Shown: positions 1 to 15,307 of the stretch, one piece after another
Numbering within the stretch: position 1 is the first letter of the stretch
Layout: each line of letters opens with the position of its first letter
Origin: Phycisphaerales bacterium
GTDB taxonomy: Bacteria; Planctomycetota; Phycisphaerae; Phycisphaerales; SM1A02
Direction of reading: 5' to 3'
Assembly: GCA_036475395.1 (NCBI GenBank)
Contig: JAZFYE010000126.1
Span: 6,850-70,849 of the forward strand
Length of the DNA stretch: 64,000 bases
Translations under genes and position numbers: made by a program
Notes under the pieces: generated by a model
What the model was told of the DNA's origin: nothing
Databases searched by the model: none
Seen by the model: only the letters and a program-made list of their open reading frames with translations

Positions 1-369
1 GTCAAGATGTCTGACGACGTTCTCTCCTTCGAACTTCACGTCCATCGACCAGCTATTGAAGTACACCTTCCCTTTGTTCACGCTCGTGATGACGCCCTTC
101 TTCGCAGCGCAGCCCGCCTCGTCACCAGTGCTTTTCTTGAAGTAGGACTTGTTCTTGAGCATGACCTCCTTGCCGCTGATCTTGACCGTCTTGCTGCCGC
201 TTGTAGTATCGCTGGCCATGCCCGTGTTGGGATACGGGATTGGCACGCCAGGTGGAGTGGCGGGGTTCTCCGGCGGCGTGAAGCACACGTCTGGAAAAGC
301 GCAGATCGATTTTCCGTCTCCCGCCTTGCAGGAGATCTCTCGGCCATTGGCAAAAACGTCGTTGGCCAT
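1..369 (-). CDS. PAAR-like (DUF4150-type) T6SS effector; only the N-terminal 123 codons are present and the gene runs off the left edge
   Basis: Absent from the ORF track because no stop lies in the window. Hand translation of the minus strand from ATG 369-367 gives MANDVFANGREISCKAGDGKSICAFPDVCFTPPENPATPPGVPIPYPNTGMASDTTSGSKTVKISGKEVMLKNKSYFKKSTGDEAGCAAKKGVITSVNKGKVYFNSWSMDVKFEGENVVRHLD. This fits the DUF4150/PAAR-like N-domain of Tde2/Tse7-type toxins. ATGA overlap with the stop of the upstream gene (371-369). Confidence 0.8.
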   Translation of the reverse strand, partial: MANDVFANGREISCKAGDGKSICAFPDVCFTPPENPATPPGVPIPYPNTGMASDTTSGSKTVKISGKEVMLKNKSYFKKSTGDEAGCAAKKGVITSVNKGKVYFNSWSMDVKFEGENVVRHLD

Positions 370-1409
370 CAGGCAGCCCTCCCGGATTCGTAGCGCAGAA
401 CCATGGCCGCCCGTTCGGAGCCATCGGCGGCGAAATGACAAAGCACTCCGGGTCCAGGTGCATATCCTTTCTGAACGGCCGCCAGTGACACCGCCAGCAC
501 ACAAGGTACGATGGCGGCGCCCACCTCGCCGATGCAATCGGCTGGGTGCCAAATGTCAAACAGCTCTGTGCGATCCCGCAGCAGCCGATCGAGCCCCAGG
601 GTGGCTTCTTTGAAACCGTATTGTTCACCGCTGAGATCGGTGATGCGGTAATCGAGGTCGGCCAACGTCTGGCCGCTCTCGGCTAGGGCGGCGTTGATGG
701 CTTGGACTATCCCGTCAGCCCGCAAGGGCTCTTCTGAGTCCACCGTGGCTGGTTCCGCGCCGTAGCCGAGACCCAGGCATTGCATCTGCGGAGCGGAGGA
801 GTCCACCGCTGGTCCGAGCAGAACCGCCGCGGCCGCCTCGCCGGGGATGAACCCGTCGGAATTGTCGGCCGTCAGCAGGCGACGCTGCTCGTAATAGTGA
901 TTCAACGAGGCGGTGACAAGCAAAGTGTCTACTCCGCAAACAAGGAGGCGCTGAATCTGCGAATCGCGGTCCATGATCTGCCGAGCGTGCATCAGTGCCT
1001 TGACGCCGCCGATCCGGCCCTCGGCGATCACGGCCGACTGCGGGTGAAACCGCCGCTCGATGCGCTCGGCGATATCGCGCAAGAGCGTTTGATCCAACTC
1101 GGCGAACCGGCCGGGTCGATCAGGTTCACTCAGACACAACAACAGCGGCACGCGCTCGACGGCGTAACGCTCCGCAATGAGCGGCGCCAGCGCTTCTTCG
1201 ATGGCAGGCGCGGCCATCTCGATGAGTTTGCGGCGACCACGGTACGGCGTTTCGAACGGCACGGAGCCGCCCTGAATGAACTCGCCGTCGTACATGAACC
1301 TGGTCTCGACGGAGCCGGTGATCCCCACGCGGATGGCTGCGCAGGACGCCTCCGTGGACCAGCCCACGCCGGTGACCATGCCGGTGCTGAGGACGGCAAG
1401 CGGCGTCAT
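369..1409 (-). CDS. beta-ketoacyl synthase (thiolase-fold)-like accessory protein, apparently non-catalytic
   Basis: 346-aa ORF starting at an ATG. N-terminus MTPLAVLSTGMVTGVGWSTEASCAAIRVGI and the segments ADNSDGFIPGEAAAAVLL and CIGEVGAAIVP follow a KAS-like layout. The positions expected for the active-site Cys (GRIGGVKAL) and His (IGEVGAA) are substituted. ATGA overlaps with both neighbouring genes. Confidence 0.75.
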   Translation of the reverse strand: MTPLAVLSTGMVTGVGWSTEASCAAIRVGITGSVETRFMYDGEFIQGGSVPFETPYRGRRKLIEMAAPAIEEALAPLIAERYAVERVPLLLCLSEPDRPGRFAELDQTLLRDIAERIERRFHPQSAVIAEGRIGGVKALMHARQIMDRDSQIQRLLVCGVDTLLVTASLNHYYEQRRLLTADNSDGFIPGEAAAAVLLGPAVDSSAPQMQCLGLGYGAEPATVDSEEPLRADGIVQAINAALAESGQTLADLDYRITDLSGEQYGFKEATLGLDRLLRDRTELFDIWHPADCIGEVGAAIVPCVLAVSLAAVQKGYAPGPGVLCHFAADGSERAAMVLRYESGRAA

Positions 1410-2518
1410 CCCTCGTCCTCCTCAACGCCGCCGCGAGCGGCGACAAGGGCGCCGAGCGACGGGTAGTAGGTCTTTCCCGTATCGCGAGCACGGTACCATG
1501 CGCGCGACATGCGGCCGATGACGCACTGGCGCATCTCCAACATATTGCGCTTGAGCGGGTGCGAAGCGCGCCAGGTGAGCGTGAACCGGCCGAGGTCGGG
1601 TTCGATCACGATCGTATCGAGAACGGCCTGTACTTCGGTGTGCTCGTAGCTCGCATCGGTGAACTCGACCGGCAGGTCGATCGTGGGCAGGCGGAACGCG
1701 GTGCGGCCCTGCGGCGTGAGGTTGGTCAGCACGACCTCTTCCCCGCCCTTGGGATGTGGGAACTGCTGGTCCAGCGGCGCGCATTGGAAATAGCGCGGGT
1801 CGAAGTCGGCGGGGAGGAACGGGAAAGTGTTGTTCAGCCAGTCGTCGTCGTAGGTGCCGGCGAAGGACGGGCGTGGGGGGAACACGCGACCGATCGGGCC
1901 GAACGACATCGGCTTGAAGTCGCCGACACGATGATCGACGGGCTTGCCGGTCTCGCTGGTGTCGGGCAGCGGCTTGCCGAGAAGCGCCTTGCCGCGGGTC
2001 AGCGGGTAGTAGCCCCTGCCGATGGGGTTGGCCGGGAAGGCCTCGGATTTCTCGGGGTTGTCGGGGTCTGCGTCGGACCCGCCGAAGGCGTTGTCGTAGC
2101 TGATGGGCTTGGAGAGGAACGGCTGGGGCTCGGAGGGGGCGAAAGAGAGGAGCACCTTGTCCCAGACGCGATCACCGTGGACATCGAACCGCTTGGAGCG
2201 GCCCGCGAAGAAAAACTCGACGGTGACCGTTTTTGCGGGCCGGCCGTCTGGAGCGTACGCAGAGCCGTTAAGGAGCACGTCGCAGTAGGGCTTCTCAGGG
2301 GCGTAGTCGCTTTCATAGATCGTGGCTGAGAAGCCTGGGTCGCCCGTGAACTCATCGGCCATGACCAGTTCGACCTGCTCCTCGGCGAGTTCGGGCTCCG
2401 AGCCGTCAGTCGGCAGCGTGAAGGTGCCCTTGATGGCCACGACGGCGCTTTCGCGCCCGTCGGGATCCATGCCGAGGGTGTACCCGGCAACCATTCTGGT
2501 GGCGTTGGTTAGCTCCAT
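1406..2518 (-). CDS. DUF2169-family T6SS adaptor/chaperone
   Basis: 370 aa with an ATG start. N-terminus MELTNATRMVAGYTLGMDPDGRESAVVAIKGTFTLP is typical of DUF2169. It sits between vgrG and a DUF4150 effector, as known adaptor genes do. Confidence 0.85.
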   Translation of the reverse strand: MELTNATRMVAGYTLGMDPDGRESAVVAIKGTFTLPTDGSEPELAEEQVELVMADEFTGDPGFSATIYESDYAPEKPYCDVLLNGSAYAPDGRPAKTVTVEFFFAGRSKRFDVHGDRVWDKVLLSFAPSEPQPFLSKPISYDNAFGGSDADPDNPEKSEAFPANPIGRGYYPLTRGKALLGKPLPDTSETGKPVDHRVGDFKPMSFGPIGRVFPPRPSFAGTYDDDWLNNTFPFLPADFDPRYFQCAPLDQQFPHPKGGEEVVLTNLTPQGRTAFRLPTIDLPVEFTDASYEHTEVQAVLDTIVIEPDLGRFTLTWRASHPLKRNMLEMRQCVIGRMSRAWYRARDTGKTYYPSLGALVAARGGVEEDEG

Positions 2519-2538
2519 ATGGCGCAGCCTCTTGACGT

Positions 2539-3117
2539 TCAGTTGATCTGGACCGAACCGCCCTTGATCTTGTTGACGCCGGACGATCGGCTGAGGACGT
2601 ATGCACCGCGGATCAACACTTTCCCCGCGCGTGTGAGCGTGATGCTCGCCTTACCACACCGGAAAACGATTTCCCGATCAGCGGTAATCACCACTCGTTC
2701 CCCATCGCGTTGAACCTCCACTGCTTCCGTTGGGTCGACCCGGTCCGTCTCCGCGCGGCGGCCGTTGGGCTGCTGACTGTTGAGGACCCCGATCACCACA
2801 GGCCGACGACAATCGCCGCGCTCAAAGACCAGCAGGACCTCACAACCAACATGCCTAGGCTGGAAGTCGAAGGTCGAACGCGCGACAATCGGCTGCGGGT
2901 CCGGGTTCTCCGGGAAATCCACGATCGGCGACGCTGTGTCGGTGATGCCGGCCGCCCGGCCGATCACGGCGCTGGGCATTTGTCGGCGATCGGATGTGTC
3001 CGGTATGTTGCTGACCTGTTTCGCTCGACTGCCGCCAACACCTGCTGGGGCGCCTCTGCCAGGTACGTGCCGCGCCGATTGGCACTTTCGACCGCGCTTT
3101 GCCACGCCATTGTGCAT
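2539..3117 (-). CDS. small gp5/VgrG OB-fold-like protein downstream of vgrG
   Basis: GCEVLLVFERGDCRRPVVIGVLNS parallels the VgrG motif GQEVIVEFLEGDPDRPIITGRVYN in this same window. The C-terminus is beta-rich (ITLTRAGKVLIRGAYVLSRSSGVNKIKGGSVQIN). The track ORF starts at GTG 3144. I prefer ATG 3117, which has GGAGGAG 5 nt upstream. Confidence 0.6.
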   Translation of the reverse strand: MHNGVAKRGRKCQSARHVPGRGAPAGVGGSRAKQVSNIPDTSDRRQMPSAVIGRAAGITDTASPIVDFPENPDPQPIVARSTFDFQPRHVGCEVLLVFERGDCRRPVVIGVLNSQQPNGRRAETDRVDPTEAVEVQRDGERVVITADREIVFRCGKASITLTRAGKVLIRGAYVLSRSSGVNKIKGGSVQIN

Positions 3118-3174
3118 GTCGTCTCCTCCGAACTGAATGTTCACACGTTCGTTGCGTTCTTCCAGCCTTGTGCT

Positions 3175-5268
3175 CTAGTTCTCGAGAATCTTCTTGCCCT
3201 TCATCACGATGTCCTTCGACGCCTTTATGGTGATCTGGCCGGATCCCTTGATCGTGATGTCTTTCCCCTCGATGTTGATGGTGCCGTCCTTTTTCATCAG
3301 TATGCTGGCTTTTCCCGTCTTGATGAGAATCTGATCGCCAGCGTCGATCAGGATGTTCTTCTTAACCTTGGTAGTCTGATTGTTGCCAATCGTTATCGTG
3401 TCGTTGCCCTTGGTGACGGTGAGGTCCCGATCGCCCTCGGCGATGGTGATCGATTCGTTGCCCTTGCTGACCGTCTCGGTGCGGTTGCCCTCCGCGATGG
3501 TGATCGTTTCGTTGCCTTTGCTGACTGTCTCGGTGCGGTCGCCCTTCGCGATCGTAATCGTTTCGTCGCCTTCCTTGACCGTCTCGGTGCGGTTGTTCCA
3601 GATCTCGATCGTCTGGCTGCCGTCGTCTGAATCGGAGTTACCGACGACCAGGACCTGGTTGTTGTGGATCTCGATCGTCTGGTCACCCTTGTCCTTGTCA
3701 TCGAAGCCGACCTTCAGAGTGTCGTTGTTCTCGACGACCCTGTTGTAGTCCCTTTCAGCATGTACGTAAATTTCCTCCTTGTCCTTCTTGTCCTCAAAGC
3801 GGATCTCGTTGAAGTTGTCGCCGGACCCGTCCTTGCTGCTGCGCGACTTGAAACCGCTCTGCGTCTGGTTGTCCGGCAGCGCGTATGGGTACATGTTGTC
3901 GCCGTTGTAGACTCGCCCGGTGATGATCGGCCGATCGGGATCACCCTCAAGGAACTCGACGATCACTTCCTGGCCAATTCGCGGCAGGAACACGCCGCCC
4001 CAATTCGCTCCCGCCCACGGTTGTGAGACTCGAATCCAGCACGAACTCTCCTCATCCGATTCTCCGTATCTATCCCAGTGGAATTGCAGCTTGACGCGCC
4101 CGTGCTTCTCGGTCCAGATCTCCTCACCGTCCTTGCCCACCACCACCGCCGTCTGTGGTCCCTGAATCACCGGCTTAGGCGTGACGCGTGGAGGCCGAAA
4201 CGGCTGCGATGAATCCATCGCGCTGAACTGACACTGGAAGAACACGCCCCCGCCACCGCCAGCCGCCGAGTGATACAAGTCGGATTCGAAATGGATCGTC
4301 GTCGACATGACCAGGTACTCGCGTTCCTGGTCCTCGCGCGTATGGTCCGTCACCTTAAACGTGTACCCGGAGCAGATCCCCCAGGCATCTGATTCTGACG
4401 AGACGATCTCATGCGAGGCCTGGAGCTCCTGGATCCGGACCTTGGCGTAGCTGTCGCCGTCGGCGTTCTCAGTGTATTCACCGGGGTAGTCGAAGATCTC
4501 ATAGTCGGCGGCGGCGTGGTCGCGTTGGATGACTGACCTGGCAAGCAGGTCCTTCTTTGGCTTTTCAAAATCGTAATCGTTGAGCGCATAGACACCCGGC
4601 TGAATCGCCTGTTCGAGGGTCCAGCCGCCAATGTGCTCGATGGGGCTGGTGCTGCCGGCTGGTCGGTATGGAATCTCTTCGTAGCCGGGAAAGGTCTGGT
4701 GGGCGCTGAGGGAATCTGCGAGCACCAGCGTGTGCTTGCCCTCAGCATGCTCAAAGAAATAGTAGATTCCCTCCTGCTCCATCAGCCGGCTGACGAAGTT
4801 GAAATCCGTCTCGCGATACTGGACGCAGTATTCCCGGGTTCGGTAACTGCCGCTCAGTGAGTCGTCGAAATCGGTGAAGCCGGCGTCTCGAAAGACCTCC
4901 TTGATGATTTCGGGAACGGTCTTCTCCTGAAAGATTCTGCAGTCCGCGGTCCGGGTCAGGAGCCAGAGCCAGGGGACGATCGTCGCCTGGTACTCTGCGA
5001 GGTCACCTTCGGCGCGGGTCTGCACAAACCGACTGACGTAGCCGTTGAAGTAGCGCGTTCTGTCGTCCGGCAACTCGAGCTGAACGGTCATGTTCTGCCC
5101 CACGATGTCAGCAAAGTTGATACTCTGCTCTTCGCTGACCAGCGTGAGGTTGTAGTGAAACAGTCGGCTGAGCCGCTCTGTGCCGTTCATGCTCCTGAGC
5201 AAAAGAACGTCGTCGCCGAGCGGGCTGCTGACGGCCACTTTTCTGTATTGTTGTGTGTATTGAGGCAT
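3175..5268 (-). CDS. vgrG: T6SS spike protein VgrG (TssI)
   Basis: 697 aa with an ATG start. MPQYTQQYRKVAVSSPLGDDVLLLRSMNGTERLSRLFHYNLTL is a classic VgrG N-terminus. gp5 OB motif GQEVIVEFLEGDPDRPIITGRVYN is present. The C-terminus is a beta-helix of repeats (ETITIAEGNRTETVSKGN...). Confidence 0.95.
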   Translation of the reverse strand: MPQYTQQYRKVAVSSPLGDDVLLLRSMNGTERLSRLFHYNLTLVSEEQSINFADIVGQNMTVQLELPDDRTRYFNGYVSRFVQTRAEGDLAEYQATIVPWLWLLTRTADCRIFQEKTVPEIIKEVFRDAGFTDFDDSLSGSYRTREYCVQYRETDFNFVSRLMEQEGIYYFFEHAEGKHTLVLADSLSAHQTFPGYEEIPYRPAGSTSPIEHIGGWTLEQAIQPGVYALNDYDFEKPKKDLLARSVIQRDHAAADYEIFDYPGEYTENADGDSYAKVRIQELQASHEIVSSESDAWGICSGYTFKVTDHTREDQEREYLVMSTTIHFESDLYHSAAGGGGGVFFQCQFSAMDSSQPFRPPRVTPKPVIQGPQTAVVVGKDGEEIWTEKHGRVKLQFHWDRYGESDEESSCWIRVSQPWAGANWGGVFLPRIGQEVIVEFLEGDPDRPIITGRVYNGDNMYPYALPDNQTQSGFKSRSSKDGSGDNFNEIRFEDKKDKEEIYVHAERDYNRVVENNDTLKVGFDDKDKGDQTIEIHNNQVLVVGNSDSDDGSQTIEIWNNRTETVKEGDETITIAKGDRTETVSKGNETITIAEGNRTETVSKGNESITIAEGDRDLTVTKGNDTITIGNNQTTKVKKNILIDAGDQILIKTGKASILMKKDGTINIEGKDITIKGSGQITIKASKDIVMKGKKILEN
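3401..3616 (-). repeat. in-frame 54-bp tandem repeats (about 4 units) encoding the VgrG C-terminal beta-helix
   Basis: tcgttgcc recurs at 3401, 3455, 3509 and 3563, a 54-nt (18-aa) period. The corresponding protein units are KGDRTETVSKGNETITIA / EGNRTETVSKGNESITIA. Confidence 0.8.
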
Positions 5269-5653
5269 GGGCTGATACGTCCTCTACCTACAGGTCATCG
5301 AGAGCTGCTGGCCGTGGGGGCGGCAGCCTCAACCCGAATGGTGATGCCAACCGCCTACCAACGTGCCCCGGACAACGGAGCCTGACCGGCGGGGGGCTCG
5401 CACACCCGGCCTTGGGTCTGTGCGGCGCCGGCGCCTATCAAGACAGCCACTGGCGATTTGGCGTTCTTCCCTGCTGCCTTCCATTGGGATTCTTGTCTTC
5501 CCAGAGCCCGATTATTGTACAGGATCCTCTCGTCGCTGCACCGGGCAAAATGGGTTCGCTGGCGGCCTTTGGCTCGCTCTGGGGACAACGGTCCTGTGTA
5601 CTGCTGGCCGATGGCTCGACAGCGCCTCCAGGCCGCGTCTTGGGGCAGGACTC

Positions 5654-5724
5654 GGCCCGTCACCGTCGATTCCGGCCAGAATCAAGCGACTGGAACTTGG
5701 GTTTCCGGGGGCCGCGATGTTACA
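5654..5724 (+). repeat. copy A of a ~70-nt conserved element (inverted partner at 9829-9902)
   Basis: ggcccgtcaccgtcgattccggccagaatcaagcgactggaacttgggtttccgggggccgcgatgttaca. The reverse complement of 9829-9902 is nearly identical. It lies in the 900-bp non-coding gap between vgrG and ORF 6172. Confidence 0.85.
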
Positions 5725-6171
5725 ATAGTCACCGATGCGCACCTGGACAGGTATCTGGCTCAACCCAAATGGGGAATATCAGATAATTGAACCCTCGTGA
5801 GACACGTTTCCGAGCACGCCCAGATCGTGCCGAAAAACGGTGCCGCAGCGCGATCTGGGACTCGTGAACTGGCGTCACCTGCATGCTTGCCGCCCGCAGC
5901 GTCCGATTAAGCCAACGTAGTTCGGGACTCGGTGTGACCGGTCGTCTACCGCTACGGTTCGATGGCAACTGGCAGGCTTCGACTTCGGTCCGATGAAGCA
6001 GGTTCGTCGACCTCGCTTATCAATTTGATTGCGGAAACAGCTTCCGTTATACAATCCGCTAGTGTAATCTGACGGAGTGCCAGAGTTCAAATCATATTGT
6101 CGAATGCCCTCCTTGGATTGAATCCCTGGTAGGGCATAGAGGAATCCGCAGAGCCTTCTGGGAGAACCAAA

Positions 6172-7341
6172 ATGGGATGCAGAGTACCGGGCCCCCTTTG
6201 TATTTCGCGCAGCAACAGCGTCACCCCTGACAAACAAACCCTGGTGCGTGCGCGATCTCTTCCACCTGGCCCAACAGGCAGGGCTGCTGGACGATCACAG
6301 CCTGATGAATCGCACAATGAATTTTGGGGAGACGTTAAAGAAGAATTGAATGAGTTTTTGGAGGGTGTTAAAGAAGAAGCGAATGAATTTTGGGAAGGCG
6401 TTAAAGAGTGGACCGTTGAAGAGCCTCTCGCAATCTGGACCTTGGCGAAACTCTTCGATCAATGGGGTGAAATCAGTCACGAATGGTTCTGGAGGTTCCT
6501 CGCCCATTATCTCACCGGAGACGGTGAAGAGTTTAAGGAATTCAAGACGGTTCCATTCGAGTGGCAGAACGCGATTCGCAAAAACTGGCGAACGAGCCAA
6601 GTGTTTGCGGTTCAGAACAAGTACCCGACTCGCTATCCGAAGGGCAAGAAGTTTCGGATTAAACCGTATGACTGGAAGGGGCTCGATGACTTGACCCGGT
6701 CTCTTGGGCATTTCGATTTGACGTATTCCAAAAAAGATAAGAAAGAGACATACGTTATCGAAGACAGATACGAATTCAACTATTACGATGAAATGAACGG
6801 GAGCCTCTCGGAACATGGAGGGAAGAACGTGAAGCTTCCCAAGTGGTTATCCGAGCAGTTGCTCAGGCTAATGCCGCGAAATGAATACAAGGTTCCGGAG
6901 GGGACAGACAAGGGTAAAGTTCAGAAGTTTACAATGAAACAGAAAGACGAGGATACCTGGGACATTATTTTGCCAACAGGTTGGTTGCAAGAGAACGGTA
7001 AACCTTTTCAGTTTAGAGCCGAGTTTAGTTCCACATTTCACATCGAAGACTATATCGGGACGTTTGATGAAAGTGGGTTTTTTGCCGGCTTGGATGAAGA
7101 TGACTTAGCACATGACTTGATGTTCTTACGAAATTCGAATTCCGTAAGAAAGGTGTTTGAGTCTCTTCAGAAGAATCATGCATCCGAAGGCAAAGAAGTT
7201 GCCGAGCATTACATTCTCGGCTTAGCGGCTCGCCAGTCTTCACCAAAGCTCAGCGATCTGAAAGGCAAGACTAATCTCGTAGACCTGCTCAAAAGCGTTC
7301 TGAAGGATTCTCCCGTCGTTCAAAAGCTGAGTCAGTTGTAA
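6172..7341 (+). CDS. hypothetical protein in a low-GC stretch, with three N-terminal 11-aa repeats; candidate T6SS cargo or orphan gene
   Basis: 389-aa ORF. ATG 6172 is preceded by GGGAG 7 nt upstream. Composition is protein-like (K/E/F/W/Y rich). GC drops to about 43% in hand-counted lines at 6361 and 6901. I recognise no family. Confidence 0.6.
   Translation: MGCRVPGPLCISRSNSVTPDKQTLVRARSLPPGPTGRAAGRSQPDESHNEFWGDVKEELNEFLEGVKEEANEFWEGVKEWTVEEPLAIWTLAKLFDQWGEISHEWFWRFLAHYLTGDGEEFKEFKTVPFEWQNAIRKNWRTSQVFAVQNKYPTRYPKGKKFRIKPYDWKGLDDLTRSLGHFDLTYSKKDKKETYVIEDRYEFNYYDEMNGSLSEHGGKNVKLPKWLSEQLLRLMPRNEYKVPEGTDKGKVQKFTMKQKDEDTWDIILPTGWLQENGKPFQFRAEFSSTFHIEDYIGTFDESGFFAGLDEDDLAHDLMFLRNSNSVRKVFESLQKNHASEGKEVAEHYILGLAARQSSPKLSDLKGKTNLVDLLKSVLKDSPVVQKLSQL
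6316..6414 (+). repeat. 3 x 33-bp in-frame tandem repeat
   Basis: Encodes NEFWGDVKEEL / NEFLEGVKEEA / NEFWEGVKEWT. Confidence 0.8.
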
Positions 7342-7358
7342 CCCGCATCTGCAAACGC

Positions 7359-7931
7359 TCATCTGGCCGATGCCGCCTGAAGCAAATCGAAAAGAAAAGG
7401 GGTTAGGACTCGTGGTTTTGTGTTTTCTGAGCTGGACGAACTCTGGGGCGGCTCATCAAGGGAATGGCCGAGGTCGCCGCCGAACACGCGGTAACCACGC
7501 CGGTCGTATTCACAGCCGCCGGACATCGCGGGAACGTTGCATTTCAACCTTGTGGAGACGTAAGGCGAGACAGCGGGAAGCTCGTCCTTGGGGAAGTACA
7601 GCCTGATCCGGTCCGCAAGTTTGCCCGCAGCGCTGAGGGCATTGGAGCGGATCCATTGCACGCTTTCCTGATAGGCTTCGAGCGGACTCTGGCTGTCAAA
7701 TCGCCTCATGAAGTGGTGTTTTTGCCCATAGTCCAACCAGTGCCCAAGATTGAAAATGTCCCGGATATCTGTGGCCACAACAGCTACCGGCAATGTGGCC
7801 GAACTCAGGCCACGCACTAGCGGATGGCTCGAACAGGACGTGGCCAGTTCTTTAACGGCCTGAGCAATAAGTCTCTTGTGGCCTGCCAGGTCGCTCATCG
7901 TGACAACCCGGTTCCGTGGGCGACAGTTCAC
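7359..7931 (-). CDS. hypothetical protein, convergent with 6172-7341
   Basis: 190-aa ORF, or 179 aa from ATG 7898. Amino-acid composition is more protein-like than the antisense ORF 7464-7820. No convincing RBS and no recognised family. Confidence 0.4.
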   Translation of the reverse strand: MNCRPRNRVVTMSDLAGHKRLIAQAVKELATSCSSHPLVRGLSSATLPVAVVATDIRDIFNLGHWLDYGQKHHFMRRFDSQSPLEAYQESVQWIRSNALSAAGKLADRIRLYFPKDELPAVSPYVSTRLKCNVPAMSGGCEYDRRGYRVFGGDLGHSLDEPPQSSSSSENTKPRVLTPFLFDLLQAASAR

Positions 7932-8060
7932 CAGCCCGTGCCTGCATCTGACCGCCAGCAGAAATGCTGCTGCAGACGGTCACCGGTTACAGATCAGGCT
8001 ACCATAGAGGTATGAACCAAATCATGGCAAGATGAAACTTTGGCGGGATGAACCGGCATA

Positions 8061-9671
8061 GTGTCGGATTCGATCATGGGTGGCACCATGCCGGGACGGA
8101 TGGAATTCGAGTTTCAATTCAGCCAGGCCCAGGCGCGGCCGGCCGCTGCGAGCCGCGACAAGTGGCCGATGCGCATCCTGATCATGGGTGACTTCGGCGG
8201 GCGAGGCCACCGCGGACGGCCTGACGACGCGGCCCCTCTGGGCGATCGGCCCATCATGCGCGTGGACGTTGACAACTTTCAGGACGTGATGTATCGCGTT
8301 GCGCCGCAGCTGCATCTGCGGCTTGGCGGTGCATCCGGACCAGACATGACCGTCCAGTTCAGGCAGCTCGACGATTTTCACCCAGATCAGCTGTATGGAA
8401 AACTGGAAGTGTTTCTGGCCCTGCGGCAGTTGAGAACGCGCCTGCTGGATCCTGCGACCTTTGCCGAGGCGGCGGAGGAACTCAAACGTCCAGCGGGAAC
8501 CCAGACGGCGTCGACTCAACCGAGTGCAGGTTCCGGTGGTTCGGAGGCGGAGGCTGCGGCCGACGGCGTCGAATCGGAGTTTGAGCGGCTGTTGGGAGGC
8601 AAGCCGGTGGCGTCGCAGGCGCGGCCGGGAACCAGTGCCCACCCCGCAGCGCAGCCGGCCGGAGCGCAAGGCGACGTGATGCGGTTCATCCGGCACATTG
8701 TCGCGCCGCACGTTCTACCGGAAACCGATCCACAACAACGGCAGTTTGTGGCGTCGATCGACGTCATGACCGCAGAGCTGATGTGCGACGTCCTGCACGA
8801 CCCGGCCTTCCAGGCGCTGGAGTCGGCATGGCGCGCCGTGCACTGGCTCATAAGCAGGCTTGAAACAGGCCAGGAACTAGGAATCTACTTGCTTGACGCG
8901 ACCAGGGATGAATTGGCAGCGGACATCAGCGCGGTGGGTAGTGATCTGGAGGCCTCCAAAGCCCACCAGCTATTAGGCGAACAGAGCGTGCAGACGCCGG
9001 GGGGTCAGCCGTGGTCACTTCTGGTGGGCAACTTCACGTTTGGGACCCAACGGCATGACGTGGCGCTATTGGCGGCGCTCGGCGCCATCGCTTCACAAGC
9101 CGGTGGGCCGTTTCTCGCGAAGGCCGAGCCGGGTGTCTTGGGTTGCCGTAGCCTGGTCGAGACCCCGGACCCACACGACTGGCGGCTCGACGATCCCGCC
9201 ACCGAAAAGCGCTGGCAGGCACTGCGCACCAGCTCCGGGGCGTCCTGGATCGGACTGGCGCTGCCGCGCGTGATGCTTCGCCTGCCGTACGGCCGCCAGA
9301 CCGACCCGATCGAGCGGTTCGAATTCGAGGAACTCTCGCACCGGCGTGAACACGAGGCGTATCTCTGGGGCAACCCGGCGTTTGCCTGCGCGATGCTGAT
9401 CGCGATGTCGTTCCAGGAACAAGGTTGGTCCATGCGACTGGGCGACCACCTGGTTATCGATGATCTTCCCGTACACACCTACAAGAACAACGCGGACGAA
9501 TCGACCATGAAGCCGTGTGCAGAGGTCTGCCTCAGTGAGAGCGGCGCCGAGGCGATCCTGAAACGCGGTGTCATGCCCGTGATGAGCTATCGCAACCGAA
9601 ATGCAGTTCGCGTGATGCGGTTCCAGTCCGTGGCGGATCCACCGGCACCGCTGGCCGGCCCCTGGGGGTGA
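8061..9671 (+). CDS. single-chain TssB-TssC-like (VipA-VipB-like) sheath-derived fusion protein lacking the TssC C-terminal ~130 aa
   Basis: The N-terminal part parallels the canonical TssB of this window: PMRILIMGDFGG / MRVDVDNFQDVM / VQFRQLDDFHPDQL versus LPFVMGVMADLSG / LEIDVDNFDDRM / ITFESMDDFSPAAV. After a low-complexity linker it parallels TssC: HDPAFQALESAWRAVHWLI, GGQPWSLLVGNFTFG, LALPRVMLRLPYG versus HHPNFQQVEGSWRGLHHLV, GGEPYGCLIGDYDFD, LTMPRFLSRLPYG. The start is uncertain: GTG 8061, or ATG at 8076, 8088 or 8100. Confidence 0.8.
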   Translation: MSDSIMGGTMPGRMEFEFQFSQAQARPAAASRDKWPMRILIMGDFGGRGHRGRPDDAAPLGDRPIMRVDVDNFQDVMYRVAPQLHLRLGGASGPDMTVQFRQLDDFHPDQLYGKLEVFLALRQLRTRLLDPATFAEAAEELKRPAGTQTASTQPSAGSGGSEAEAAADGVESEFERLLGGKPVASQARPGTSAHPAAQPAGAQGDVMRFIRHIVAPHVLPETDPQQRQFVASIDVMTAELMCDVLHDPAFQALESAWRAVHWLISRLETGQELGIYLLDATRDELAADISAVGSDLEASKAHQLLGEQSVQTPGGQPWSLLVGNFTFGTQRHDVALLAALGAIASQAGGPFLAKAEPGVLGCRSLVETPDPHDWRLDDPATEKRWQALRTSSGASWIGLALPRVMLRLPYGRQTDPIERFEFEELSHRREHEAYLWGNPAFACAMLIAMSFQEQGWSMRLGDHLVIDDLPVHTYKNNADESTMKPCAEVCLSESGAEAILKRGVMPVMSYRNRNAVRVMRFQSVADPPAPLAGPWG

Positions 9672-9696
9672 TACCGTCCGACTCACCGCATGGTGC

Positions 9697-9712
9697 TGCG
9701 TCAATTGACGCA
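9697..9712. promoter_or_regulatory. perfect 16-bp palindrome TGCGTCAATTGACGCA (operator-like or hairpin)
   Basis: Read directly from the sequence, 26 nt after the stop of 8061-9671. There is no flanking U-tract on either strand, so it is not a classical terminator. Confidence 0.25.
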
Positions 9713-9828
9713 AAAGTGAACATGGTCATCGTGGCCCGACACGGTCCAGTTCTGACCTAGCTTCTTCTTGACCGACACTTCCCATTTGACCTTCGCTCGA
9801 CTCCACCGCCGAGCTTTCCGAGCACGAG

Positions 9829-9902
9829 TGTAACCGCCCCCCCCCGGAAACCCAAGTTCCAGTCGCTTGCTGCTGACCGGAATCGACGGTGACAGGCGGG
9901 CC
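9829..9902 (-). repeat. copy B of the ~70-nt conserved element, inverted relative to copy A
   Basis: Reverse complement: ggcccgcctgtcaccgtcgattccggtcagcagcaagcgactggaacttgggtttccgggggggggcggttaca. It differs from copy A at only a few positions. Confidence 0.85.
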
Positions 9903-9961
9903 CAGAAAAAGATTCCCCTCCCCTTTTCTTGCCAGCCATGAACAGTTCGCGCTGTAGATCA

Positions 9962-10642
9962 TTAGAAGAAGAAGGGTACTGGCAATTCGATTTGCCCCCA
10001 CATCTTTGACGTAACGATCACCTTGCATGGCATATAGTCGAACAGTGGCCGCTCACTCTGACCAGGGTAGTGGAACAGACTCTTCGCTTTCTGAGCGAGG
10101 GCCGAAAGGTTCGGCCTCTGTTGTGGTTTCGCATTGTAGGGCCACGGATTCTCGGAATTGAGGACTTTCACGCGGACCTCGAAACGATAAGCATCTGTGG
10201 TCTTGCTCCGACTACAATGCTGTTGCAATCCGGCCTTGATCATATCGGTCACGGCCCCCCAAGCTGCCTGGCCCGTCGCCTTGTTCTCGATGAATATGTG
10301 CTGCATTCCTCTTTTCGATTCCCACTTTACTTTGACGTCCGGGTTGGTGTTCGTCCGAATACACATGTGCCCGTGCCCTCCGAAGTGGTTGAGCGCTTGC
10401 GTCAACGTTTCCAGCTCGAACGTCTTCGCTTGCAATTGGATATCCACGTCTGCGGCCCACTTCTTTAGACCGAGTGCCTGTTTCTCGGCGTGCTTCTCAT
10501 TCTTTAGATCATCGGGATGGCTCCCGACGTAGGCCCTTGCATACCCGCTGATATACTTTAGCAATCCAAAGGCATTTCCCACTTCTTGTCTGCACCTCAT
10601 CAGGGAACCGTGCGCTTCCTTCAAGTCACTGTCGATTGTCAT
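9962..10642 (-). CDS. hypothetical protein (orphan, about 50-55% GC)
   Basis: 226 aa. ATG 10642 has GGGGAGGA 8-9 nt upstream. Composition is protein-like. No recognised family. Confidence 0.65.
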   Translation of the reverse strand: MTIDSDLKEAHGSLMRCRQEVGNAFGLLKYISGYARAYVGSHPDDLKNEKHAEKQALGLKKWAADVDIQLQAKTFELETLTQALNHFGGHGHMCIRTNTNPDVKVKWESKRGMQHIFIENKATGQAAWGAVTDMIKAGLQQHCSRSKTTDAYRFEVRVKVLNSENPWPYNAKPQQRPNLSALAQKAKSLFHYPGQSERPLFDYMPCKVIVTSKMWGQIELPVPFFF

Positions 10643-10714
10643 ATTGTAGTTCCTCCCCGACCATTATCGATATCATTGGAATGATAGTAACCATCTCGCT
10701 GGCGAACTGATAAC

Positions 10715-10727
10715 TGATAGGAATTCT
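10715..10727 (-). promoter_or_regulatory. shared 13-mer TGATAGGAATTCT upstream of orphan gene 9962-10642
   Basis: An identical 13-mer recurs at 11795-11807 upstream of the next orphan gene. It contains the near-palindrome AGGAATTCT. A partial extra copy (gaatgatag) is at 10679-10687. Confidence 0.3.
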
Positions 10728-11015
10728 GATCCCCCGTCACGCCTGATGCAACCATGCGACCGCCCTTCTTGCGACTTTGTCCACCCTCGTTTCACCCCTT
10801 CGTCATCTAGTTTTGAGATGGGATCGCGGTTTTCGACCGCGATCTTGCTGCCTGTCTGACGCCGGAGCGTGCGTCGGTCGTGGGGCGGGCGCGGAATGGT
10901 GCCGGTTGGCAGTTCGTCATCGCACCCATACGGCGAACCTTAGGTCGAATCCCCGCTTCTGATTCCTACTCGCGATCTTCCTGCTGTCCAATCTCCCCAT
11001 ATTCCCCTTTCTTGG

Positions 11016-11600
11016 CTATCTCCACCGGGGTTTCGATCCCGAAGGTGGTGGGAGAACGATTCGGGTTTCGTAGGACGCAGTGCCGAGTCCGGGACCGGCA
11101 TGGAATTCTTTGATATCTACTGTGGCGCCCCGAATCGATATCCTGAACGCAAAAATGGTCGGAGCGATCCTAAGAATCCGTCGGATGATCTCATAACCGG
11201 AATTCGACACAACTGCTTGGGGGACCTCCTTGTTGCGGTAGGTAAAAAGCTGTTTGGTTATGATGTGCCCTTCGGCGTTGATTGCCTTCTTTGGCATTCC
11301 GTGCTCGTCTGGCACCTGGTTCGTGTCGCGGAGCCAACCTCGTTGGTCGTTCGTTGCCAGCTGGCGAAAACATCCGTCACGATAAAATGTCTTCACCAGC
11401 TCTTGGATGTCGCAGCCCCGTCTTCTCGAATCTAGCCAGTCCCAGGTGTGGATCACGTTGATCCCAACGTTGTCAGTACCGACACGATCATTTTCTTTTG
11501 CCATCCTCCATCTGGTCGGTTCGCCCAACTGCTGGCTGTCGCGAGCGGCGAGTTTTGCCATTTGTGCCATACTAAAGCGGGGGGGCGGGACTCTACTCAT
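11016..11600 (-). CDS. hypothetical protein (orphan)
   Basis: 194 aa. ATG 11600 has AAGGAG 6 nt upstream. No recognised family. Confidence 0.65.
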   Translation of the reverse strand: MSRVPPPRFSMAQMAKLAARDSQQLGEPTRWRMAKENDRVGTDNVGINVIHTWDWLDSRRRGCDIQELVKTFYRDGCFRQLATNDQRGWLRDTNQVPDEHGMPKKAINAEGHIITKQLFTYRNKEVPQAVVSNSGYEIIRRILRIAPTIFAFRISIRGATVDIKEFHAGPGLGTASYETRIVLPPPSGSKPRWR

Positions 11601-11794
11601 GGCCGTCTCCTTAAGAATAGTCAGGTCGACACCGGATTTGGAAGAGTTGGGAATCTACACACTTCCATACACGACTGCTGGGATTACGGACCCAGCGGAA
11701 CTCTGTCAACGGTAACGGTCGTGGCCGCAATATCATGAGTGCTCCCATCGTCTCAGGCAGCCAGAGCTTCCAACATGCCTACTCGGCGCTTGAA

Positions 11795-11807
11795 TGATAG
11801 GAATTCT
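11795..11807 (-). promoter_or_regulatory. second copy of the 13-mer TGATAGGAATTCT, upstream of orphan gene 11016-11600
   Basis: Exact 13-nt identity with 10715-10727, in the same orientation and 1080 bp away. Confidence 0.3.
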
Positions 11808-11924
11808 CACCCGCGGTACCGGCGTTAGGCTACTCGTTTGGGGCGGAAAAGCAACCAGTGTTTCTCCTCCGAACGGGGGGCAGCCTCAATTCATTGGTCT
11901 GGCACCCGCTGGGCCGCTGTGCAC

Positions 11925-12152
11925 TCATGCAAATCGCGCGGAATGATCTGACAGGGGCAGAAAAGGGGTCAGGACTCTTTGATTGTGCCGGAAGTCGAAC
12001 AACTCGGGTGCGCCGGGGTCGGTCAGCTGCGCCGTCTCATCGAGGTCACGGTAGGGGAATAAGCCGGCGTCCGAGTTGACCTTTGCGCCGTGGAATTCCA
12101 GCTTGATGGCGCGGTCAAAACCTACCCGTAACGCGTCCTTAGCGTACTTCAC
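11925..12152 (-). pseudogene. N-terminal fragment of an IS1380/IS4-superfamily DDE transposase
   Basis: KLEFHGAKVNSDAGLFPYRDLDETAQLTDPGAPELFDFRHNQ matches the conserved N-terminal pattern (..F.GG.lTSDaGlll.relDe.lgLt....l.D.R...n) of IS1380-type transposases. Only about 57 aa of similarity remain and there is no DDE domain. Confidence 0.6.
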
Positions 12153-12404
12153 CCATTGGGGTCGGCGCTTACTCGGTGCTTGGCGGTGCAGATTCGCCGC
12201 AATCTACACCGGTGAACGCCATGATCGGTTGTTCATGAACGCTGATGTTCTCTGAGAAATGTGGGCTTGAGGTGCGGGCCGTAATTCTAACGCCGATGGG
12301 AATAGGCCGTCGATCATGTGCTGGCCGACTTGTTGACTGACACCGCTGGCAAACTTCACTTCTACACTGTTTATCGTTGAAGGAATGTTCGGCGTCCTGG
12401 TCTC

Positions 12405-12450
12405 TCTAGAAAATGACAAAAGAGAAGAACAGTACACTTCGACCAGTACT
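12405..12450 (-). terminator. weak candidate intrinsic terminator after clpV
   Basis: Minus strand reads AGUAC-uggucgaagu-GUACU followed by guucuucucuuuugucauuuu. The stem is only 5 bp and AT-rich. Confidence 0.3.
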
Positions 12451-12472
12451 TACGCTCGCCGGACAAGACCGA

Positions 12473-15307
12473 TCAGTCGAACGCATACGCAAACTGGCCG
12501 TCCGCCGCGCTCACCTGAACGCGGTCGATCTGCTCACCTTCCATCATGCGCGTCAGGAATTCGTGGCTGATCTCCGGCAGCAACGTGTGGGTAAGGATCG
12601 CGTCCACCATGCGAGCGCCGCTCTCCACCTCGGTGCATCGGTCCGCGATCAGATCGATCACCGCGTCATCGTACATGAAGGGAACCTGGTGCTGCTCTTG
12701 CAGACGGTTCTCGATCCGTTTCAACTGGAGACGGATGATCAACTGGATCATCTCGTCGCCGAGCGGAAAGTAGGGAACCACCACGAGCCTGCCCAGGAGG
12801 GCCGCGGGGAAGACCTTGCGCAGCGGCTCGCGCAAGGCTTTGGCGATGCCTTGCGGATCGGGCATCAGCTCGGGATCCTTGCACATGTTCATGATGAGAT
12901 CAGAGCCGACATTGCTGGTCAGCAGGATGATCGTGTTCTTGAAGTCGATCAGCCGGCCCTCACCGTCTTCCATCCTCCCCTTGTCGAAAACTTGGTAGAA
13001 GATCTCATGCACATCGGGGTGGGCTTTTTCGACCTCATCGAGCAAGACGATGCTGTAGGGTCGCCGACGCACGGCCTCGGTCAGAACGCCGCCCTCGCCA
13101 TAGCCGACGTAACCGGGCGGAGCGCCCTTGAGGGTCGAGACCGTGTGCGCTTCCTGAAACTCGCTCATGTTGATGGTGATGACGTTCTGCTCACCGCCGT
13201 AGAGCACTTCAGCGAGGGCCAGGGCGGATTCGGTCTTGCCGACGCCGGACGGGCCCACCAGAAGGAACACGCCGACCGGCCGAGCGGGATTGTCCAGACG
13301 GGCCCGTGAAGTCTGGATGCGCTTTGCGAGTGCCTCAAGCGCGTGCCGCTGGCCAATCACACGCTGCTCCATGGTATCCGCCAGGTTGAGCACCGCTTCG
13401 ATCTCGTTCTTGACCATTCGACCGACGGGGATGCCTGTCCAGTCGGCGACAACTGAAGCGATGGCTTGCTCGTCAACGCTGGGAAGGATCAGTGGATCCT
13501 CGCCCTGGAACTCTTCCAGCTGCGCCTGAAGCCCCCGCAACTCGTCCAGTAGTGCTTGGCGTTGCTCTGCAGTGAGCGGCTCATTATTGCCGCCGTCCCC
13601 AATCGGCGCCGTGGCGGCCACAGTGACCGAAGTTGGGTCGGCCACCGCGCTGGCGACACCGTCGCTCGAATCGACCGGCGGAATCCCCGATCCGCCTTCG
13701 CTGCCCATTTCTTGTTGCTCTGCGTCATCGGCTTCGCTCTCAATCGTACCGGGGGGCTCTTGGCGCAGCTTGCCGCGAATATCAAGGATCTTGCTCACGA
13801 GCTCCCGTTCGGTCCTCCAGCGCTCTTCCAATTCAGACACGCGATTTCGTTCACTTTCGAGTCGTTCGGCGATCTCGGTCCGACGCGCCTCGTGATCCAA
13901 GCCGACCCGCACCTCCCGATCGATGATTTCCAACTCGGTCTCCAGCGCTGCGATGCATCGCCGACAATCGTCAACCTTGGCAGGTGTCGCGTGCTGTGAG
14001 ATCCCCACCCGCGCGCAGGTCGTATCCAGTACGCTGACCGCTTTGTCTGGCAGTTGGCGGTCAGCGATGTACCGATGGGAAAGCCGCACCGCCGCCACCA
14101 ACGCCTCGTCAAGAATCTGAACCTCGTGGTGCTTCTCCAGGGTTGAAGCGAGTCCCCGCATCATCCCTACCGCCTTTTCCTCGGACGGCTCATCCACCTT
14201 GACAACCTGAAATCGCCTGGTGAGCGCAGGATCTTTCTCGATGTACTTCTTGTACTCACCCCACGTTGTGGCGGCCACCGTCCGCAAGGTCCCGCGGGCG
14301 AGCGCAGGCTTGAGCAAATTGGCGGCGTCACCCTGTCCGGCTGCACCACCGGCCCCGATGAGGGTGTGCGCCTCGTCAATAAACAGAATGATGGGCTTGG
14401 GCGAGGCGTGGACTTCCTCTATGACCTGCTTCAGGCGGTTCTCGAACTCGCCCTTCATGCTCGCTCCAGCTTGGAGGAGTCCAAGGTCCAGAGCCCGCAG
14501 GGAGACATCTCGCAGGGCCGGTGGAACGTCGCCCGCCGCGATGCGAAGCGCGAAGCCCTCGACTACCGCTGTCTTGCCCACGCCCGCCTCCCCGGTCAGG
14601 ATCGGGTTGTTCTGTCGCCGACGCATCACGATGTCGACGATCTGCCGAATCTCCCCGTCCCGTCCGACAATCGGGTCAATCTCCCCGTTGCGAGCCTTCT
14701 CGGTAAGGTCAACGGAGAATCTCGCCAGCGCCTCCTGCTTTCCCATCTGGGCAGGTGGGACCGCTCCGCTCGCTTCCCCTGGCGACACGCCGCCTCCCAC
14801 CGCCGAGCCATCGGAAGCGACCAGCGTGTCCTCGACGGACCCACCGACGATCTTGTCAAACGAATCGCTGAGCTCCTCAGCCTTTACGCGGGCGAACTCG
14901 TTGGAGATCGCCAACAGCACGCTACGGAGTCCCGGCGTCTTGAGAATCCCGACCAGAACATACCCCGTGCGAACAACCGAATCGCCAAACATGAGGGTGC
15001 TGTACGTCCATCCCTCGCGTACCGCTTCCTCAAGGTGCGGGGAAAAATCCGAAATCGACGTCGCGCCGCGTGGCAATGCGTCAAGCGACGCGGTCAGGTC
15101 TGTTGCCAGTCGCGACGGATCGATATCGAAGTGATCAACAATCCGATGCCAGTCGGTGTTCTGCGTCTGCAACAGCTGATGAATCCAGTGTGATAACTCA
15201 ACATACGGGTTGCCACGCATCTTGCAGAACACCGTCGCCGCTTCGACGGATTTGTAGGCGAGGCTGTTGAGTTTACCAAAGAGGGATGCCCGGGGGATTT
15301 CTGCCAT
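12473..15307 (-). CDS. clpV: T6SS AAA+ ATPase ClpV (TssH)
   Basis: 944 aa with an ATG start. Clp N-domain start MAEIPRASLFGKLNSLAYKSVEAA. Two Walker A motifs, GEAGVGKTAVVEG and GPSGVGKTESALALAE. It sits after tssG. Confidence 0.95.
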   Translation of the reverse strand: MAEIPRASLFGKLNSLAYKSVEAATVFCKMRGNPYVELSHWIHQLLQTQNTDWHRIVDHFDIDPSRLATDLTASLDALPRGATSISDFSPHLEEAVREGWTYSTLMFGDSVVRTGYVLVGILKTPGLRSVLLAISNEFARVKAEELSDSFDKIVGGSVEDTLVASDGSAVGGGVSPGEASGAVPPAQMGKQEALARFSVDLTEKARNGEIDPIVGRDGEIRQIVDIVMRRRQNNPILTGEAGVGKTAVVEGFALRIAAGDVPPALRDVSLRALDLGLLQAGASMKGEFENRLKQVIEEVHASPKPIILFIDEAHTLIGAGGAAGQGDAANLLKPALARGTLRTVAATTWGEYKKYIEKDPALTRRFQVVKVDEPSEEKAVGMMRGLASTLEKHHEVQILDEALVAAVRLSHRYIADRQLPDKAVSVLDTTCARVGISQHATPAKVDDCRRCIAALETELEIIDREVRVGLDHEARRTEIAERLESERNRVSELEERWRTERELVSKILDIRGKLRQEPPGTIESEADDAEQQEMGSEGGSGIPPVDSSDGVASAVADPTSVTVAATAPIGDGGNNEPLTAEQRQALLDELRGLQAQLEEFQGEDPLILPSVDEQAIASVVADWTGIPVGRMVKNEIEAVLNLADTMEQRVIGQRHALEALAKRIQTSRARLDNPARPVGVFLLVGPSGVGKTESALALAEVLYGGEQNVITINMSEFQEAHTVSTLKGAPPGYVGYGEGGVLTEAVRRRPYSIVLLDEVEKAHPDVHEIFYQVFDKGRMEDGEGRLIDFKNTIILLTSNVGSDLIMNMCKDPELMPDPQGIAKALREPLRKVFPAALLGRLVVVPYFPLGDEMIQLIIRLQLKRIENRLQEQHQVPFMYDDAVIDLIADRCTEVESGARMVDAILTHTLLPEISHEFLTRMMEGEQIDRVQVSAADGQFAYAFD

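Follow-up and report, generated by a model that had tools for sequence, protein, structure and literature searches.

Inverted repeats between vgrG and clpV

We analysed a 64,000-nt stretch of a Phycisphaerales genome (assembly GCA_036475395.1, contig JAZFYE010000126.1, positions 6,850 to 70,849; hereafter the window), in which a type VI secretion system (T6SS) locus carries two inverted repeats in the variable cargo region between vgrG (3175-5268, minus strand) and clpV (12473-15307, minus strand), both recognised by gene calling and Pfam. From left to right, this region contains the first repeat (copy A), a 389-aa orphan gene (6172-7341, plus strand), a 179-aa orphan gene (7359-7898, minus strand), a fused sheath-like gene with VipA and VipB domains (8076-9671, plus strand), the second repeat (copy B), and two further orphan genes on the minus strand encoding 226 aa (9962-10642) and 194 aa (11016-11600). 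[quoted passage not shown] The comparisons described here lead to another conclusion, as the repeats are very probably the relics of two separate insertions of one insertion sequence (IS) of the IS1380 family, or of its non-autonomous derivatives.

A repeat search over the window recovered the two arms at 5655-5711(+), the core of copy A, and at 9841-9897(-), the core of copy B, which are 57 nt long, 93% complementary and spaced by 4129 nt. Over this arm 53/57 positions are identical (4 differences), and the longest exact match is 29 nt, starting at 5683. Sub-cores of 29 and 21 nt each occur exactly twice in the window when three mismatches are allowed, and none of 100 shuffled sequences reached two sub-core matches, which bears out the description of two inverted repeats with a core of about 57 nt. 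The gene content of the bracketed segment had likewise been read correctly (a low-GC orphan, an open reading frame (ORF) from 7359, and a VipA and VipB fusion according to Pfam), as had the fused gene being the sole T6SS-type gene seen on the plus strand. The arms are the best-preserved cores of two longer units of ~150 nt, located at 5613-5788(+) for copy A and 9943-9772(-) for copy B, and only ~57-70 nt appear alike by eye because the middle of copy A (5712-5770) is diverged and degenerate.

The parent IS1380-family element

The 20-mer ACTGGAACTTGGGTTTCCGG from the core was present on 17 contigs of a collection of species-representative genomes, four of them in one metagenome-assembled genome (MAG) and almost all from Planctomycetota or Phycisphaerae MAGs, and it was also found exactly on nine metagenome contigs, giving 26 contigs overall. 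Alignment of the copies showed a conserved unit of ~135-150 nt with variable left boundaries and a sharp, constant 3′ boundary (...GGTCAAATGGGAAATGTCGG). A unit profile built from 28 related copies detected 39 copies in the window plus 187 kb of Planctomycetota loci fetched for comparison (referred to by number, such as L018), with four co-oriented units within 8 kb in L013 (438-7126) and three units in L007. The repeat thus belongs to a dispersed family.

In three of the loci (L018, L025 and L026), a unit is located directly downstream of a transposase gene. The L018 transposase matched the Pfam family DDE_Tnp_1_4 (7e-131) and the NCBIfam model NF033539, 'IS1380 family transposase', with 371 bits at a cut-off of 180 and over profile positions 1-417 of 419. 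The intact parent IS in L018 is ~1.70 kb in length and consists of the gene for this 448-aa DDE transposase with a 3′ untranslated part of ~245 nt, a left inverted repeat (CCGGATTTCCCAGATGACC) ~100 nt upstream of the transposase gene, and a right inverted repeat that ends in the same sequence as the unit (...GGTCAAATGGGAAATGTCGG). The left inverted repeat is an inverted match of the 3′ end of the unit (CCGACATTTCCCATTTGACC) at about 15/20 positions; the unit ends at the inverted match of the left terminus, and is therefore the right-terminal part of the ~1.70-kb IS. Members of the IS1380 family have a single DDE transposase, a length of ~1.6-2 kb, short terminal inverted repeats and a target-site duplication of 4-5 bp, and the L018 element has the transposase type, the length (~1.7 kb) and the short terminal inverted repeats. 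The repeat first noticed in the window is the last ~125-170 nt of an IS1380-family element.

BLAST comparison of the L018 IS with the window gave three matches. Copy A corresponds to IS positions 1536-1635 at 5613-5711(+) with 94% identity, copy B to IS positions 1579-1702 at 9897-9772(-) with 94% identity over 126 nt, and the third match is the left end of the IS, with IS positions 3-279 at 12268-11989(-) and 89% identity over 280 nt. The statement that there is no other copy in the window thus stands for the core, but not for the element, as a left end of the same IS is also present, separated from copy B by 2.3 kb and two genes. The unit profile detected copy A at 5640-5788(+) (score 103, E=2e-30) and copy B at 9902-9766(-) (score 141, E=3e-42). 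Based on BLAST, the profile and the alignment, copy A is a solo right-end relic corresponding to IS positions ~1536-1702, with a terminus-like end (...CAAATGGGGAATATCAG) at about 5788 that faces into the segment. The terminus of copy B (GGTCAAATGGGAAGTGTCGG) ends at 9772 and faces the segment and the 3′ end of the fused sheath-like gene. The left-end piece (11989-12266, minus strand; BLAST, tblastn and terminus search) consists of the left inverted repeat (GCCCACATTTCTCAGAGAAC, at 12266-12247), the 5′ untranslated region (5′ UTR) and the first ~55 transposase codons, and stops at IS position 279. What had been called as a 75-aa ORF (11925-12152, minus strand) is a stub of the transposase gene, and tblastn of the transposase on the window gave only a local N-terminal alignment of 70 residues (residues 6-75) at 12140-11940. 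No further transposase sequence or units were found in the window or in the 6.8 kb of the contig beyond the window start. As the window lacks a transposase gene, copies A and B are not autonomous IS copies.

Sub-families and deletion derivatives of the element

Internally deleted derivatives that join the left end of the IS to its right end were found in L004, L002 and L015. L004 has the left end and the first transposase codons joined to the final 67 nt of the unit. In L002, the beginning and the last codons of the transposase gene are fused, followed by the 3′ UTR and the unit, and L015 contains further deletion forms of the IS. The unit family thus resembles bacterial MITEs in being short, multi-copy, dispersed, intergenic and IS-derived, with both-ended forms in these three loci. 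The two copies in the window differ from MITEs in consisting of a right end only, and no left-end sequence adjoins either of them, so that they are relics rather than mobilisable MITEs in the strict, both-ended sense. The description of the repeats as MITE-like ends therefore holds to the extent that they derive from an IS1380-family element with MITE-type derivatives elsewhere, but does not hold for the copies themselves. No target-site duplication was present at the L018 IS or the L004 MITE, while L015 has 3 bp (TAA) on both sides; such duplications were considered as proof of transposition and set aside, being inconsistent among complete elements.

The units fall into two classes according to what precedes them. 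Class I units, such as copy A, have IS 3′ UTR sequence on their left, whereas in about ten class II units a different leader of ~40 nt (GGCAAGAAAAGGGGACGGGAGTCTTTTTCGGGACCGGCC) replaces the IS 3′ UTR. Copy B (9772-9943, minus strand; BLAST, unit profile and class II profile) belongs to the second class, with its leader of ~40 nt (GGCAAGAAAAGGGGAGGGGAATCTTTTTCTGGGCCC) at 9905-9943 and a match to the class II profile at 9943-9881 (E=8e-18). When the class II leader was searched with up to 5 edits allowed, 10/11 matches were fused to units, and the possibility that it is an independent repeat or the terminus of a second element was left as a weak lead. Over the 57-nt arm, copy A has 1 difference from the copy in L006 and 4 from copy B, and the left parts of copies A and B differ. 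With copy A closer to copies in other genomes and the left parts differing, the pair did not arise by local duplication, and judged by these comparisons copies A and B are independent insertions of different sub-families.

Three further observations concern the family. A 26-nt direct repeat (AGAAAAGGGGTYAGGACTC..., 85%) at 7393-7418(+) and 11959-11984(+) resembles the class II leader, and its second copy abuts the break of the IS left end; among these look-alikes, 11948-11980 is marginal in the class II profile (E=0.008) and 7393-7418 was not detected by it. Copy B contains a G-run at 9838-9846, and a G-run of variable length is found at the equivalent site of all units (alignment columns 74-88), with 9 G in copy B and up to 8 plus 4 in L015. 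Its length shifts the spacing of the two most conserved blocks of the unit by up to 8 nt between copies, and it could be a slippage-prone tract. Finally, L017 and L025 share one insertion site with the same downstream GGDEF-EAL gene, and differ in the form of the element. On the metagenome contig the unit is preceded by an intact transposase 3′ end, and in the MAG the upstream part has been swapped for another repeat that is common to L010 and L012. This difference is evidence of ongoing element turnover at a fixed site.

Orientation of the fused sheath-like gene

The first proposal in the earlier note was that recombination between the repeats flips the DNA between them (5712-9840), switching the direction of the fused gene relative to the remainder of the T6SS locus. 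The geometry is suitable, with 57-nt inverted repeats at 93% that share an exact core of 29 nt, and no T6SS-type gene other than the fused one was seen on the plus strand. In the distant loci L031, L032 and L033, however, where the product of the fused gene has 51-59% protein identity, the fused gene (8001-9550, plus strand) also lies between clpV and vgrG on the minus strand, as in the window, and the profile search found no units in these three loci. The presence of the same arrangement in unit-free distant loci argues that the strand is a conserved feature and not the product of a flip; on these comparisons, the opposite-strand orientation of the fused gene is an ancestral, conserved feature of this T6SS type.

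Closer relatives gave the same picture. In the sister locus L028, with 84% identity at the protein level and 87-90% at the nucleotide level, vgrG is on the minus strand and the fused gene on the plus strand. The two units of this locus do not flank the fused gene, being positioned back-to-back between a LysM gene and a 224-aa gene, each directed outward at a gene. L029 (91% protein identity) aligned to window positions 7721-9822 with 90.7% identity and without interruption at the terminus of copy B, which indicates that copy B predates the split of these genomes, while its left side has a different unit in a different place. The analysis placed the window on contig JAZHCB012035791.1 of assembly GCA_044232445.1, and a separate assembly, GCA_044232185.1 (L030), is colinear with window positions 1-20642 at 99.98% and with identical junctions. 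The four single-nucleotide differences in these 20,642 nt are all in vgrG and cluster within 44 nt (4459-4502), as might result from recombination or gene conversion over a short tract, or from a patch of polymorphism.

Both orientations were thus not seen among close strains, L030 being colinear and L028 and L029 having the same relative orientations. Recorded Pfam domains of the called genes in window positions 1-15268 and in the 6.8 kb beyond (L001) included no resolvase, invertase or integrase, a negative that rests on those recorded domains, with four local orphans lacking a family match. An exact match of 29 nt is near the lower limit for RecA-dependent exchange, and the repeats, which belong to separate sub-families of a dispersed IS relic, do not form a dedicated recombination site. 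Taken together, with conserved strand in L031-L033, orientation retained in L028 and two independent assemblies that are colinear with identical junctions, an invertible or historically inverted cassette is very unlikely. The earlier note had itself expected that a dispersed repeat and a single orientation in relatives would speak against inversion, and this is largely what L028, L029 and L030 and the copy-number check returned.

The proposed composite insertion and a possible 2.5-kb module

Alternatively, the 4.2-kb segment could have been inserted as one unit bounded by MITE-like ends, in the manner of a composite transposon. The repeats are indeed IS-derived, the 389-aa gene has a low GC content, and the content from vgrG to the fused gene differs from that of L028. 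Against this, both termini (5788 and 9772) point inward with the bodies of the elements outside the segment, opposite to the layout of a composite transposon; a left end is missing from both copies, and no transposase gene is present in the window. The fused gene and its position are ancestral and common to L028, L029 and L031-L033, L029 has copy B at this very site but a different left side, giving the two ends different histories, no direct repeats flank 5613 and 9943, and no empty site was found in relatives. We consider this composite insertion, the second proposal of the earlier note, to be very unlikely. The arrangement recalls composite transposons such as Tn5 and Tn10 in that two IS-derived sequences are inverted around a few genes, and differs from them in the inward termini and in the absence of outer ends and a transposase.

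A different combination of the pieces is possible, namely that copy B is the right end of a 2.5-kb IS-derived module (12266-9772, minus strand) that was mobilised in trans and brought in the 194-aa and 226-aa genes, which now separate clpV from the fused gene. Such a module would resemble the transposable modules of ISPme1 and ISEcp1. Copy B shares its strand with the left end and the two are correctly oriented to one another, the enclosed genes are orphans of lower GC content, and IS1380-family elements are known to mobilise adjacent DNA (PMC9330008). In addition, the terminus search found TCAA directly outside both termini, at 9768-9771 next to copy B and at 12267-12270 next to the left inverted repeat (minus strand), which may be a 4-bp target-site duplication, albeit a weakly supported one, with a probability by chance of about 1/256 at fixed boundaries. 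If such a module was inserted, the predicted empty-site junction would read ...GGCCCGCACC-TCAA-GAAGAAGCTAGG..., joining the 3′ flank of clpV to the 3′ flank of the fused gene. Conversely, complete elements in L018 and L004 lack a target duplication and L015 has only 3 bp, neither the module nor its genes had a second copy among 5.8 billion proteins, and L029 ends inside copy B, so that its left part is not comparable. Moreover, this position is occupied in distant loci by small variable genes, one to three in number and mostly on the strand of clpV, and the 194-aa and 226-aa orphans may thus be native cargo between two separate insertions. Overall we regard the module as possible, yet less likely than not.

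The IS pieces are positioned close to where related loci diverge. When compared with L028, the window loses homology at 5584, 28 nt ahead of the point where the IS homology of copy A begins. The match is regained at 7975 and runs to 9689, at 18 nt past the stop codon of the fused gene and 83 nt short of the copy B terminus. In L029, divergence from the window sets in at 7721, and another unit is 225 nt away. IS relics thus coincide with, or lie close to, the edges of the blocks in which relatives differ, an association that would fit IS insertion followed by deletion or replacement, remodelling the cargo region.

Position of the units relative to genes

Typically, 10-60 nt separate the 3′ end of the unit from the start codon side of a co-oriented gene. 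Of 28 units, 15 have the start of a co-oriented ORF (at least 150 aa) no more than 60 nt past their 3′ end, compared with 4 past their 5′ end (Fisher p=0.004), and for ORFs of at least 200 aa the comparison with random positions gave 14/32 versus 18% (binomial p=7e-4), an enrichment of about 2.5-3-fold. In L028 the two back-to-back units (8346-8798) are located in a divergent intergenic region, with gene starts 31 nt and ~130 nt away. An outward promoter at the right end is not a formal criterion for membership of the IS1380 family. Complete outward promoters have been described at the 3′ end of ISEcp1 and ISPme1, and a remnant of ISEcp1 of ~200 bp is retained upstream of blaOXA-232 (PMC9330008). 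By analogy, we infer that many of the relics may persist by contributing to the expression of the downstream gene.

A location directly upstream of co-oriented genes would also be expected if the unit were a structured RNA (a cis-regulatory leader or small RNA), and the four differences between copies A and B look codon-like in one frame (PVTVDSGQ[N/Q]QATGTWVSGG), as in a repeated coding motif. Yet RNAalifold on 32 copies gave -3.7 kcal/mol with compensatory change in 1/10 pairs, there was no Rfam match at E<=1, and the 3′ boundary of the unit coincides with the inverted repeat of the IS. A structured RNA was rejected on the absence of an Rfam match and of a conserved fold or covariation in the 32 copies. 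A riboswitch-like regulon was also rejected, the downstream genes being functionally unrelated (FAD oxidases, a sulfatase, a hydrolase, a beta-lactamase-like protein, GGDEF-EAL, an extracytoplasmic function (ECF) sigma factor and a glyoxalase). The differences between copies A and B look synonymous or conservative in one frame, but depending on the locus the unit is traversed by ORFs in any of the three frames, with no coding constraint, and on this ground and that of the IS end a coding repeat was rejected. An RNA or coding function instead of transposon DNA is therefore very unlikely.

A more far-reaching reading is that the right-end unit of ~130-170 nt is a portable expression cassette, spread upstream of unrelated genes in marine Planctomycetota to form a transposon-built set of co-regulated promoters. 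In the window, the inward pair would then drive the 389-aa orphan and an antisense transcript of the fused gene, and the 2.5-kb module would have delivered two more orphans. It is prompted by examples such as the four co-oriented copies within 8 kb in L013 and the back-to-back copies at divergent genes in L028, and we judge it to be improbable.

Proposed history of the repeats

The most plausible explanation is that an IS1380-family element, or its derivatives, inserted twice in the variable cargo region, and that deletion of most of each element then left the relics. Here, and in dozens of further loci, these would have been retained chiefly at sites where a right end adjoins the 5′ end of a gene, and the likely reason for their retention may be an outward promoter in the right end, as in ISEcp1 and ISPme1. 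If so, transcription from copy A would run toward the 389-aa orphan, and that from copy B would enter the fused sheath-like gene in antisense. We would not expect the relics to move or to invert the segment; the homology that they offer for rare RecA-dependent events is 29-57 nt at most.

Several findings do not sit easily with this explanation. The class II solo right ends have a recurrent left boundary in 10 copies, and their spread without a left inverted repeat is not accounted for by it. Copy number in this genome is known for 71 kb only (the 64-kb window and the 6.8 kb of L001), all three IS pieces in those 71 kb are inside the T6SS variable region, and orientation was compared in consensus assemblies only. 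For the promoter, a scan for the sigma-70 consensus gave nothing inside either window unit, and the spacer of an ECF-like GGAAC...CGTT motif varies from 16 to 24 nt across copies as a result of the variable G-run. Both copies in the window are also atypical in their location, with the terminus of copy A 383 nt upstream of the start of the next gene, the co-oriented 389-aa orphan, and copy B facing the 3′ end of a convergent gene. As a separate candidate, an ECF-type promoter GGAAC-N-CGTT across the G-run was discarded as unsupported, with its spacing of 16 to 24 nt and no sigma-70 consensus; a promoter may lie elsewhere in the unit.

Genes of the segment and the T6SS neighbourhood

The 389-aa orphan has a GC content of ~46-50%, as seen from composition and family searches, and a single relative with 44% identity in L034, in a non-T6SS context and with no unit nearby. 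This relative is located between a flotillin-like gene and a T2SS-F gene. Three tandem 33-nt repeats at 6316-6414 of the 389-aa gene encode 11-residue repeats resembling NEFWGDVKEEL. Of the 179-aa orphan, known from the gene record and the L029 comparison, only the 5′ part (window position 7721 onward) is common to L029. The 226-aa and 194-aa genes have a GC content of ~51-57%, and the 226-aa protein matched only itself in the 5.8 billion proteins. None of the four local orphans (389, 179, 226 and 194 aa) has a match in Pfam or NCBIfam.

The fused gene encodes a full-length protein of 531 aa, as concluded from Pfam and its homologs. Its family has 2074 homologs at E<=1e-20, and the 120 listed range from 481 to 584 aa with both domains present in all; truncation of the gene by copy B was rejected, since homologs have the same length and domain content. 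The protein (a family of ~515 aa) combines VipA, which is TssB-like, with the N-terminal domain of VipB, and lacks the VipB_2 C-terminal domain. In every larger locus examined the gene is on the strand opposite clpV, and likewise opposite vgrG in all cases where one contig carries both; in the window, L031 and L032 it is located between the two. The strain of the window (L030) encodes a canonical TssC as well. A literature search on planctomycete MITEs and fused TssB-TssC genes returned nothing specific. Downstream of vgrG (window 369-3144, L001 12152-16953), there is a typical cargo set of DUF6484, DUF2169, a 346-aa protein lacking annotation and a PAAR-like protein that contains a Tox-GHH2 nuclease domain, with a likely immunity gene coming next, and the sister locus L028 has a different PAAR-toxin tail.

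Relation to known elements and significance

The element shares with ISEcp1 and ISPme1 its IS1380-family DDE transposase, its length of ~1.7 kb, and short terminal inverted repeats starting with CC. As with the remnants of ISEcp1, the relics consist of the 3′ (right) end only and are strongly biased toward positions just upstream of co-oriented genes (PMC9330008). Differences are that the hosts are uncultured Phycisphaerales and Planctomycetota and not Proteobacteria, that the relics far outnumber intact copies and form sub-families with recurrent left boundaries, that the promoter is putative and no sigma-70 consensus is visible, and that, unlike the ISEcp1 remnant, neither copy in the window is immediately upstream of a gene start. 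The segment also has a superficial likeness to the invertible segments of Hin, Gin and Cin, shufflons and the invertons of Bacteroides, as these too are segments of a few kb bracketed by inverted repeats. It is set apart from them by having no recombinase on record nearby, by repeats that are dispersed relics, by its single orientation, and by an enclosed gene that keeps its orientation in repeat-free loci. The IS1380-family element and its relic family in Phycisphaerales and Planctomycetota are apparently undescribed so far.

Recognition of the IS pieces explains spurious ORFs, for instance those at 5458-5790 and 9726-10028, as well as the 75-aa 'gene' called at 11925-12152 and breaks in contigs, as at both ends of L029. 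It also removes a false lead, as this T6SS locus very probably has no phase-variable or flipped cassette, the fused gene being on its strand by a design that this T6SS type conserves. The relics coincide with differences in gene content between related T6SS loci, which fits a role of IS activity in remodelling T6SS cargo regions. If an outward promoter of the ISEcp1 type applies here, the family would represent promoter donation by a transposon outside the setting of antibiotic resistance.

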